From assembly GCF_056746865.1 (NCBI RefSeq), contig NZ_CM163382.1: a DNA stretch of 64,000 nt. The stretch is one strand, 5' to 3'. Shown piece by piece: positions 48,626 to 50,152 of this stretch; the first letter of the stretch is position 1; each line of letters starts with the position of its first letter. The notes below the pieces were generated by a model. It ran no database searches and was not told the origin of the DNA. It saw nothing but the letters and a program-made list of their open reading frames with translations. The position numbers were made by a program, and so were the translations under genes.

Positions 48626-49414
48626 TCATTTCAGCATACAATCGCCACATTGCTGCACATCCGGTAAGCGATAACGCTGGCAGCAAGTGCGGCGCACCAG
48701 CAGGCCGTCGCGCAGTACCACGGTACGCCAGAGTGGATTATCTTCACCGTTCGTGAGCATTTTCTCAAAAAAGAGGGCATGGCGCAGCGATTCAACCGTC
48801 GCCTCGCCAAGCAGCTGTTTCATCTCAGTCAGATACCAGTTGATCAAATAACCGGTATTGCTCCAGATAAGTTTGCCGTTGATCTCTCCCGTTGCTTCTA
48901 ATGCCTGCACTACCGGAACCAGCGCCTGACTGATTAACGTTTCCATTCGCTGCTGCGGCGAATGTAGTGTTGCGTTTTTATCTTCACACACATCGACCCA
49001 GAAACAGGCGGCGCGTCCGGTTTCGTGAAACTCAACGTGGAAATGTTCCGGCGACACATCTAATGCTTTTTCCTGCGTCAGCAGCGCCAACATTAATGGT
49101 GGCACCATCAGGCCGATATACCATTGCGCCCATAGTGAGATCAGCGGTTTGTTCTCGCGGATCATCGTTGGTTGGTTGCGATAGATATGATCGGAATAGA
49201 CCACCAGTAGAGAACTTAGCGCATTCGTTGATGACCATTGCGCCAGCGTCATGGCGTTAAGCGGAGCGGGTTCATCCAGGCGGATAAACTCGAGCAAATG
49301 TTCACGATGTTCGGCGATCGTCGCCCGTATGGCTTGTGCAAGCCCAGCATCCTGCGGCTGGAGATGCGTTCGCCAGATAACATCTTCATAGAGCGGTGCG
49401 GAACGATAGGCCAT
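48626..49414 (-). CDS. fhuF: FhuF, ferric-siderophore reductase (2Fe-2S)
   Basis: 262 aa with C-terminal C-C-x10-C-x2-C cluster (..RRTCCQRYRLPDVQQCGDCMLK). Confidence 0.9.
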   Translation of the reverse strand: MAYRSAPLYEDVIWRTHLQPQDAGLAQAIRATIAEHREHLLEFIRLDEPAPLNAMTLAQWSSTNALSSLLVVYSDHIYRNQPTMIRENKPLISLWAQWYIGLMVPPLMLALLTQEKALDVSPEHFHVEFHETGRAACFWVDVCEDKNATLHSPQQRMETLISQALVPVVQALEATGEINGKLIWSNTGYLINWYLTEMKQLLGEATVESLRHALFFEKMLTNGEDNPLWRTVVLRDGLLVRRTCCQRYRLPDVQQCGDCMLK

Positions 49415-49429
49415 AATCGGGATAGTAAT

Positions 49430-49545
49430 CTAAATGATAATGATTGCTAATCCTAGCGATAGGTTTACCCGATAGCAAGGGATTTCTCTGGCTTGCAAAT
49501 GATAAAAATTATCATATGATATTAGTTATCATTATCAATGAAAGA
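49430..49545. promoter_or_regulatory. Fur boxes in the fhuF / yjjZ divergent promoter
   Basis: aaatgataatgattgctaatc (49432-49452) and gataaaaattatcatatgatattagttatcattatc (49501-49536) resemble the GATAATGATAATCATTATC Fur consensus. Confidence 0.6.
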
Positions 49546-49554
49546 GATGAAACC

Positions 49555-49791
49555 ATGTTGCAACGTACGCTGGGCAGTGGCTGGGGAGTGTTGCTGCCGG
49601 GATTGCTGATTGCAGGGCTGATGTATGCGGATTTATCGCCGGATCAGTGGCGGATTGTCATTCTGATGGGATTAATATTGACGCCGGTGATGCTGTATCA
49701 CAAACAGTTGCGGCATTACGTTTTGCTGCCATCGTGCCTGGCGCTTATTGCTGGCATCATGCTGATGATAATGAATTTGAATCAGGGATGA
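49555..49791 (+). CDS. yjjZ: YjjZ, small Fur-regulated membrane protein
   Basis: 78 aa MLQRTLGSGWGVLLPGLLIAGLMYADLSPDQWRIVILMGLIL.. Confidence 0.75.
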   Translation: MLQRTLGSGWGVLLPGLLIAGLMYADLSPDQWRIVILMGLILTPVMLYHKQLRHYVLLPSCLALIAGIMLMIMNLNQG

Positions 49792-49829: not shown

Positions 49830-49916
49830 TGGTGCGAGGGGGGGGACTTGAACCCCCACGTCCGTAAGGACACTAACACCTGAAGCTAGCGCGTCTACCA
49901 ATTCCGCCACCTTCGC
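49830..49916 (-). tRNA. leuV: tRNA-Leu(CAG)
   Basis: 87-nt reverse complement of GCGAAGGTGGCGGAATTGGTAGACGCGCTAGCTTCAGGTGTTAGTGTCCTTACGGACGTGGGGGTTCAAGTCCCCCCCCTCGCACCA; symbol assigned by operon order. Confidence 0.9.
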
Positions 49917-49950: not shown

Positions 49951-50037
49951 TGGTGCGAGGGGGGGGACTTGAACCCCCACGTCCGTAAGAACACTAACAC
50001 CTGAAGCTAGCGCGTCTACCAATTCCGCCACCTTCGC
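49951..50037 (-). tRNA. leuP: tRNA-Leu(CAG), variable-arm variant (one substitution relative to its neighbours)
   Basis: Same 87-nt gene with taagaacact instead of taaggacact (plus strand). Confidence 0.88.
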
Positions 50038-50065: not shown

Positions 50066-50152
50066 TGGTGCGAGGGGGGGGACTTGAACCCCCACGTCCG
50101 TAAGGACACTAACACCTGAAGCTAGCGCGTCTACCAATTCCGCCACCTTCGC
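50066..50152 (-). tRNA. leuQ: tRNA-Leu(CAG)
   Basis: Third identical-length copy; first gene of the leuQPV operon on the minus strand. Confidence 0.9.

Follow-up and report, generated by a model that had tools for sequence, protein, structure and literature searches.

Fur-bound promoter regions between the divergent fhuF and yjjZ genes of Escherichia coli

The window analysed here is a 64,000-nucleotide stretch of contig NZ_CM163382.1 (RefSeq assembly GCF_056746865.1), and the DNA around the intergenic spacer under study belongs to the E. coli chromosome. A 401-bp stretch (49300–49700) is matched in 5424 of 5426 complete E. coli genomes, with 100% identity to strain 300709 and 95.5% identity to K-12 MG1655, and the matched regions are annotated as fhuF and yjjZ. 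Two of the 5426 genomes are without the region, and 3 of the 5429 matching places lie on plasmid-labelled records. The fhuF coding sequence (48626–49414, minus strand) encodes a ferric-siderophore reductase of 262 aa, as identified by the list of open reading frames, the Pfam domains FhuF and FhuF_C and the RefSeq annotation. The divergent yjjZ coding sequence (49555–49791, plus strand) encodes 78 aa and is identified by Pfam DUF1435 (E = 1e-36) and the RefSeq annotation. An earlier note, made from the sequence of this DNA, had named the divergent genes fhuF and yjjZ, and the Pfam domains together with the RefSeq annotation of the matching genomes bear these names out.

The spacer comprises exactly 140 bp (49415–49554) and is bounded by the fhuF start codon (49414–49412, minus strand) and the yjjZ ATG at 49555. 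In K-12, the gene order is yjjQ, bglJ, fhuF, yjjZ, three tRNA-Leu genes and rsmC, with which the open reading frames of the window agree. The three tandem tRNA genes (49833–49916, 49954–50037 and 50069–50152, minus strand) lie 3' of yjjZ and converge on it; they are annotated as tRNA-Leu (leuV and its neighbours) in K-12, and about 40 bp separate the yjjZ stop codon from the first of them. A search with Rfam at a permissive threshold detected no known RNA inside the spacer, its matches being these three downstream tRNAs only. The FhuF protein of the window shares 95% identity with K-12 FhuF and differs by 14 substitutions. One of them, Thr260Met (codon 48635–48637), falls immediately behind the final cysteine of a Cys-Cys-x10-Cys-x2-Cys cluster at the C-terminus, which accordingly reads CGDCMLK in the window as compared with CGDCTLK in K-12, Salmonella and Klebsiella.

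The 19-bp Fur consensus GATAATGATWATCATTATC and the 7-1-7 motif TGATAATNATTATCA were used to score both strands of the whole 64-kb window. Scores are counts of consensus matches and not values from a position-weight matrix built on curated sites; the matrix scores quoted below are taken from a published information-theory scan. The best and second-best 19-bp matches in the 64 kb are located in the spacer at 49518–49536 (16/19) and 49495–49513 (15/19), as are the best and second-best 7-1-7 matches, at 49500–49514 (13/14) and 49517–49531 (12/14). Two further 7-1-7 matches of 11/14 are found in the spacer at 49523–49537 and 49435–49449. Across the 64 kb, nine 7-1-7 matches reach at least 11, and seven of them score exactly 11/14. 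Another 11/14 match to this motif, TGATAATGAATTTGA at 49766–49780, is situated in the 3' end of yjjZ and may be due to chance. A Fur operator can be recognised by the 19-bp consensus GATAATGATAATCATTATC, by overlapping 7-1-7 motifs or by at least three GATAAT-like hexamers in an array, and the spacer qualifies through its 19-bp and 7-1-7 matches. The Fur-like strings quoted in the earlier note are likewise present, GATAATGATTGCTAATC at 49436–49452, GATAAAAATTATCA at 49501–49514 and GTTATCATTATC at 49525–49536.

Because the spacer is AT-rich (32% GC compared to 51% for the window), the null model consisted of 5000 dinucleotide-preserving shuffles made from the spacer itself. At most 0.08% of these shuffles equalled the observed maximum score, and at most 0.06% equalled the observed number of sites. 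Shuffles of the whole window gave 0.12–0.15 sites at thresholds where two were observed. The claim that the spacer holds at least two Fur-like sites therefore stands, as the top two matches of each consensus in the 64 kb fall within it and fewer than 0.1% of shuffles equal them. The low GC content, together with the resemblance of Fur boxes to −10 elements, might suggest that the matches are accidental products of an AT-rich promoter region with no role for Fur. We regard this explanation as practically negligible, given that composition-matched shuffles almost never equal the observed scores and that the boxes are deeply conserved. A chance origin is, moreover, refuted by published footprints, ChIP-exo and Δfur expression data (PMC2189734, PMC10164565, PMC10301672).

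The corresponding fhuF–yjjZ region of K-12, which shares the locus, the 140-bp length, the gene order and the boxes with the window, was studied by Chen et al. in 2007 under the site names fhuF1 and fhuF2 (PMC2189734). These authors predicted two Fur clusters, one with three strong sites (16.1, 20.8 and 22.3 bits) and one with two weaker sites (14.6 and 9.3 bits), and confirmed two separate protected regions by DNase I footprinting of a 240-bp K-12 fragment, complemented by a gel shift. The fhuF1 region was protected at 50 nM Fur, and the fhuF2 region was protected weakly. Both clusters were named “the fhuF promoter region” in that work. Since the alignment of the two spacers contains no indels, K-12 coordinates convert to window positions by subtracting one fixed number, which is 4554272 for NC_000913.2, as derived from the fhuF and yjjZ start codons in PMC2189734, and 4556249 for NC_000913.3, as verified on that sequence itself.

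The left, low-affinity operator occupies 49408–49461 and corresponds to the K-12 footprint fhuF2 (4603680–4603733 of NC_000913.2; PMC2189734, Table 3 and Fig. 5). Its core (49427–49454, minus strand) consists of TGATAATGATTGCTA at 49435–49449, the 11/14 match, with flanking hexamers, and includes the first of the quoted strings. In our alignment of the fhuF side from 16 genera (alignment A2), nearly every base of 49427–49445 is invariant or close to it. The fhuF transcription starts published for K-12 (4603716/4603717; PMC2189734, Fig. 5 legend) map to 49444–49445 on the minus strand, inside the left operator. From these starts and from conservation, we assign a putative −10 hexamer, TAGGAT, to 49450–49455 (minus strand), 4–5 nt upstream of the published start and with T, A, A and T invariant in A2. 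A putative −35 hexamer, TTGCTA, lies at 49473–49478 (minus strand), separated from the −10 by a 17-bp spacer; its TTGC is invariant in the 16 genera of A2, and its position fits the published start. The left box covers this −10 and the fhuF start (49444–49455) as well as the leader.

The right, high-affinity operator spans 49491–49543 and corresponds to the K-12 footprint fhuF1 (4603763–4603815; PMC2189734). It contains overlapping Fur boxes at 49495–49537, made up of three 7-1-7 matches and two 19-mers, and the cluster as a whole forms a 46-bp imperfect palindrome (49493–49538). A promoter scan places a sigma-70 promoter for yjjZ, TTGCAA-16-TATGAT, within it on the plus strand, with the −35 at 49493–49498 and the −10 at 49515–49520. 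Identical hexamers were predicted from an RpoD genomic SELEX peak (PMC3946193) and are named in the ROSE paper (PMC10301672). The yjjZ transcription start reported in the latter (NC_000913.3 position 4,605,777) maps to 49528 on the plus strand, a mapping checked on NC_000913.3. It falls inside the 16/19 Fur box, 7 nt past the yjjZ −10 and within the right footprint. The right cluster extends from just before the yjjZ −35 to about +16 and covers the −35, the −10 and the start (49493–49528). Fur boxes therefore overlap the core promoter or start of both genes, the starts being those of the K-12 papers. Bases 49499–49536 are largely invariant across the 16 genera in the alignment of the yjjZ side (alignment A3).

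The two transcription starts are about 83 bp apart, and relative to that of fhuF the right cluster occupies −46 to −98. The two −35 hexamers are separated by a 14-bp junction (49479–49492), at which homology to other genera stops from both sides. According to the earlier note, the Fur-like sites fill the spacer. This holds for most of its length, as the K-12 footprints mapped on it cover about 100 of the 140 bp, but about 29 bp (49462–49490) are left unprotected.

Because the right cluster is palindromic, it also contains a promoter-like match on the minus strand, TTGATA-16-TATGAT (49538–49511), with a predicted start at about 49504. This element might act as a second Fur-occluded promoter of fhuF, which would then be read from two promoters under iron starvation. 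Its promoter-scan score of 10/12 is above that of either mapped promoter, Shimada et al. predicted a fhuF promoter from the same TTGATA hexamer (PMC3946193), and the published fhuF starts may stem from iron-replete cultures, in which such a promoter would be silent. However, the element mirrors the yjjZ promoter in the 46-bp palindrome, so that a match of this kind should arise even if it served no purpose. The −35 hexamer of the element, TTGATA, is unconserved even in E. albertii or Citrobacter (A3). Furthermore, 49444/49445 are the only fhuF starts reported (PMC2189734), and the text of the ROSE paper contains no start of this kind (PMC10301672). We consider a second fhuF promoter in the right cluster very unlikely. 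A search of the Cappable-seq supplement text for further starts in the spacer found no entries for the region.

Published binding and expression data, obtained with K-12 and other strains and not with the strain of the window, place both genes under Fur. Gao et al. (2023) reported a Fur ChIP-exo peak in MG1655 at 4603779–4603794, corresponding to 49507–49522 of the window, which appears under iron-replete conditions only and is assigned to yjjZ (PMC10164565). In W3110, a single Fur ChIP-exo peak is assigned to both fhuF and yjjZ (PMC10164565). Both genes belong to the core Fur regulon and are derepressed in the Δfur mutants of nine E. coli strains (PMC10164565). The log2 ratios of Δfur to wild type range from 5.5 to 11.3 for yjjZ and from 2.0 to 8.5 for fhuF, which is less repressed than yjjZ in all nine strains (PMC10164565). 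The list of the core regulon is headed by yjjZ, and in most of the nine strains no other gene of this regulon is derepressed as strongly. The value of 8.5 for fhuF was observed in W3110, indicating that fhuF is not always weakly regulated (PMC10164565). In addition, the yjjZ start at 4,605,777 is undetectable in the wild type, present in Δfur, and strong in vitro with Eσ70 alone (PMC10301672). A fhuF::lacZ fusion is Fur-repressed and titratable, and the classic Fur titration assay uses it as reporter. In Salmonella, where yjjZ and fhuF are not adjacent, yjjZ is in the Fur regulon and a PyjjZ reporter is iron-repressed (PMC8432900).

Consistent with these data, the iron-repressed expression of both genes proposed in the earlier note agrees with the published K-12 footprints, the ChIP-exo peak confined to iron-replete conditions and the derepression in nine Δfur strains. 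In view of these published experiments, the interpretation as Fur control is correct and also already known; the spacer is among the best-documented Fur targets. PMC10301672 states that EcoCyc assigns the fhuF1 and fhuF2 sites to yjjZ as well. Our literature search found no mutational dissection assigning each cluster to its gene, and no paper naming STM4551 together with fhuF. One side observation concerns the published record. The MG1655 sheet of supplementary file 3 of PMC10164565 gives a fhuF-labelled peak, P135, at 4593337–4593349, about 10 kb away from fhuF, and the peak in the spacer, P137, is assigned to yjjZ alone; the labelling of P135 and P137 is possibly a table error, or else the weak fhuF box yielded no resolved peak of its own. 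A review-level statement holds that OxyR may also repress fhuF.

To place the spacer in a wider context, species-representative genomes were scanned with FhuF, which gave 52 loci across the Enterobacteriaceae; gene gaps were measured, a GGDEF gene was located by tblastn, and the fhuF side (A2) and the yjjZ side (A3) were aligned for 16 genera. The fhuF–yjjZ distance is 140 bp in Escherichia (five loci and the window) and 155–166 bp in Leclercia and Silvania (five loci), which also lack an intervening gene. By comparison, a gene encoding a GGDEF protein lies directly upstream of fhuF in 41 of the 52 other Enterobacteriaceae species, and the fhuF–yjjZ distance is 1396–1444 bp in those with a full yjjZ match (37 of the 41 GGDEF-bearing loci). 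This long-gap class includes Citrobacter, Salmonella, Klebsiella, Enterobacter, Kosakonia, Trabulsiella and Siccibacter. The intervening gene is about 1.05 kb long and encodes 348–354 aa of the diguanylate cyclase type (Pfam GGDEF, E = 4e-47; e.g., 1316–2380 of locus L009 and 1348–2394 of locus L040); it is oriented on the fhuF strand and is divergent from yjjZ. In the 41 species, about 1.3 kb including the GGDEF gene takes the place of the 14-bp junction of the window, and no homologue of this gene was found anywhere in the 64-kb window.

Despite these different arrangements, each box keeps to its own gene. The fhuF box, T(G/A)GCAATCATTATCA, is found about 32–44 nt from the fhuF ATG whatever the gene arrangement, and the yjjZ boxes, TGATATTGGTTATCATTATC and often also TGATAAAAATTATCA, are found some 31–55 nt ahead of the yjjZ ATG, again whatever the arrangement. 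On the fhuF side, 52 of 53 examined sequences carry a box of at least 11/14 at 11–60 nt ahead of the ATG. On the yjjZ side, such a box is present at 11–75 nt ahead of the ATG in every one of the 49 sequences that match yjjZ in full. Among random 50-bp windows of the same loci used as controls, some of which may overlap the sites themselves, 18 of 1060 reached at least 11/14. The boxes are thus conserved in the orthologous promoters. The 16 genera provide a textbook example of phylogenetic footprinting. Conservation is concentrated in the −35, the −10 and the box on the fhuF side (A2), and in the −35, the boxes together with the −10 contained in them, and the Shine-Dalgarno region on the yjjZ side (A3). 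In both alignments, similarity stops just upstream of the −35.

Genera with the GGDEF gene share a second block, CAATTTATCACCTTAA...TGTCATTA, about 90–140 nt upstream of yjjZ (A3 columns 20–60; L007–L014 and others). Read toward the GGDEF gene, this block resembles ATGACA-16-ATAAAT; it lies outside the Fur cluster and is probably the GGDEF gene's own promoter, to judge from its sequence. The wide distribution of the GGDEF gene, which includes Salmonella and Citrobacter, suggests that the gene was lost in Escherichia rather than gained elsewhere. In Leclercia and Silvania, a junction different from that of Escherichia suggests a separate loss.

Taken together, the E. coli spacer most probably contains two back-to-back sigma-70 promoters, each overlapped by its own Fur operator, with Fe2+-Fur blocking yjjZ strongly and fhuF weakly. 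Our comparison is best accommodated by a back-to-back fusion of two autonomous Fur-controlled promoters, whose −35 hexamers came to lie 14 bp apart, because each box keeps a fixed distance to its own gene also where the GGDEF gene intervenes. The iron repression of Salmonella yjjZ, which is not next to fhuF, agrees with such autonomy. When iron is sufficient, Fe2+-Fur dimers would bind the arrays of AT-rich hexamers and exclude RNA polymerase from both promoters. The right operator, with three overlapping strong boxes and high affinity, would shut off yjjZ almost completely, and the left operator, with one weak box of low affinity over the fhuF −10, start and leader, would repress fhuF less tightly. 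This difference in strength between the two operators would explain why derepression is greater for yjjZ than for fhuF in each of the strains. The two operators would be independent in ancestry and adjacent in Escherichia only because the GGDEF gene is missing. We infer that promoter occlusion is the mechanism, that the two operators of E. coli act independently, and that the GGDEF gene was lost and not gained.

The strong cluster named fhuF1 in the literature sits on the yjjZ promoter and not on the fhuF promoter, which in part explains why fhuF is held weakly and yjjZ tightly. Weak repression of fhuF is also a plausible reason for the easy titration of fhuF::lacZ in the Fur titration assay.

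The earlier note had described a Fur-box cluster shared by the two genes. The spacer does hold Fur sites for both of them, but two operators fit better than one shared cluster, with separate footprints and with each box beside its own gene in 41 species. A single bidirectional operator of the fepA–fes type is not what is observed: there are two footprints about 29 bp apart with unequal affinity, and each box stays with its own gene where the genes are about 1.4 kb apart. Because the strong cluster lies upstream of the fhuF start at −46 to −98 and Fur can spread, we also weighed one cooperative operator, on which Fur would nucleate at the right cluster and spread or loop to the left box, making fhuF repression dependent on the yjjZ-side cluster. 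At higher concentration, Fur does yield “secondary” footprints of greater extent, a subject of discussion in PMC2189734; the two footprints are near each other, the W3110 peak is single and assigned to both genes, and the exact 140 bp of the window is kept in the five other Escherichia loci. By contrast, the published footprint still shows a gap without protection (PMC2189734), and conservation of the left box, which presumably suffices there, extends to the 41 species whose strong cluster is some 1.4 kb away. Leclercia and Silvania, also without the intervening gene, differ in spacing, and the lower repression of fhuF in nine of nine strains (PMC10164565) likewise argues against one cooperative unit. 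We therefore judge a shared operator improbable.

Even with two operators of separate origin, full independence in E. coli is open to one objection, namely that the right cluster is so near that it could influence polymerase contacts upstream of fhuF or seed the spreading of Fur. In this regard, loss of the GGDEF gene, by putting the strong yjjZ operator 46–98 bp upstream of the fhuF start, might have created a new coupling, either through Fur spreading or looping or through blocked upstream polymerase contacts. We raise this tentatively and think it rather unlikely; if it were true, the iron threshold of fhuF would differ between Escherichia and the genera that keep the GGDEF gene.

The two-operator arrangement can be compared with other Fur-controlled systems. 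The enterobactin gene pairs fepA–fes, fepB–entC and fepD–entS resemble the spacer in having divergent iron-repressed genes, Fur-box arrays and a short spacer, and, as in our proposal, their repression is ascribed to promoter occlusion, both as cited in PMC2189734. For fepA–fes, one footprint (611868–611915) is listed in PMC2189734, whereas fhuF–yjjZ has two of unequal affinity; the title of a study cited there refers to coordinate Fur repression of both divergent fepA–fes promoters in vitro. Unlike fepA–fes, fhuF–yjjZ shows in the comparative data two operators of separate ancestry and not one bidirectional operator. The aerobactin promoter iucA is similar to fhuF–yjjZ in combining a strong nucleating site with a weaker adjoining region, and its footprints extend at higher Fur concentration, again as cited in PMC2189734. 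At iucA both sites serve one promoter, whereas at fhuF–yjjZ each site overlaps a different, oppositely facing promoter. As a discovery, the Fur control of this spacer carries little weight. What is new here is the comparative evidence for two operators, one per gene, which are direct neighbours in no more than Escherichia and a few relatives. The probable fusion of two autonomous promoters by gene loss offers a natural test case for the interaction of neighbouring Fur operators.

The spacer of the window is identical to that of K-12 at 136 of 140 bases and differs by four SNPs (window/K-12: 49453 C/A, 49486 C/A, 49524 A/G and 49553 C/T) without indels. The SNPs at 49486 and 49553 lie outside the boxes. 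The SNP at 49453, inside the left footprint, makes the putative fhuF −10 TAGGAT in the window and TATGAT in K-12. TAGGAT is the form seen in most other genera, and exact copies of the fhuF-side 71 bp in the 5426 E. coli genomes number 2832 for the window version and 366 for the K-12 version. The published fhuF promoter experiments thus all rest on a minority −10 allele of K-12, which is nearer to the consensus. The SNP at 49524 is inside the right footprint, where the A of the window lowers one of the overlapping boxes from 12/14 to 11/14; the same A is also present in Salmonella arizonae and several other species.
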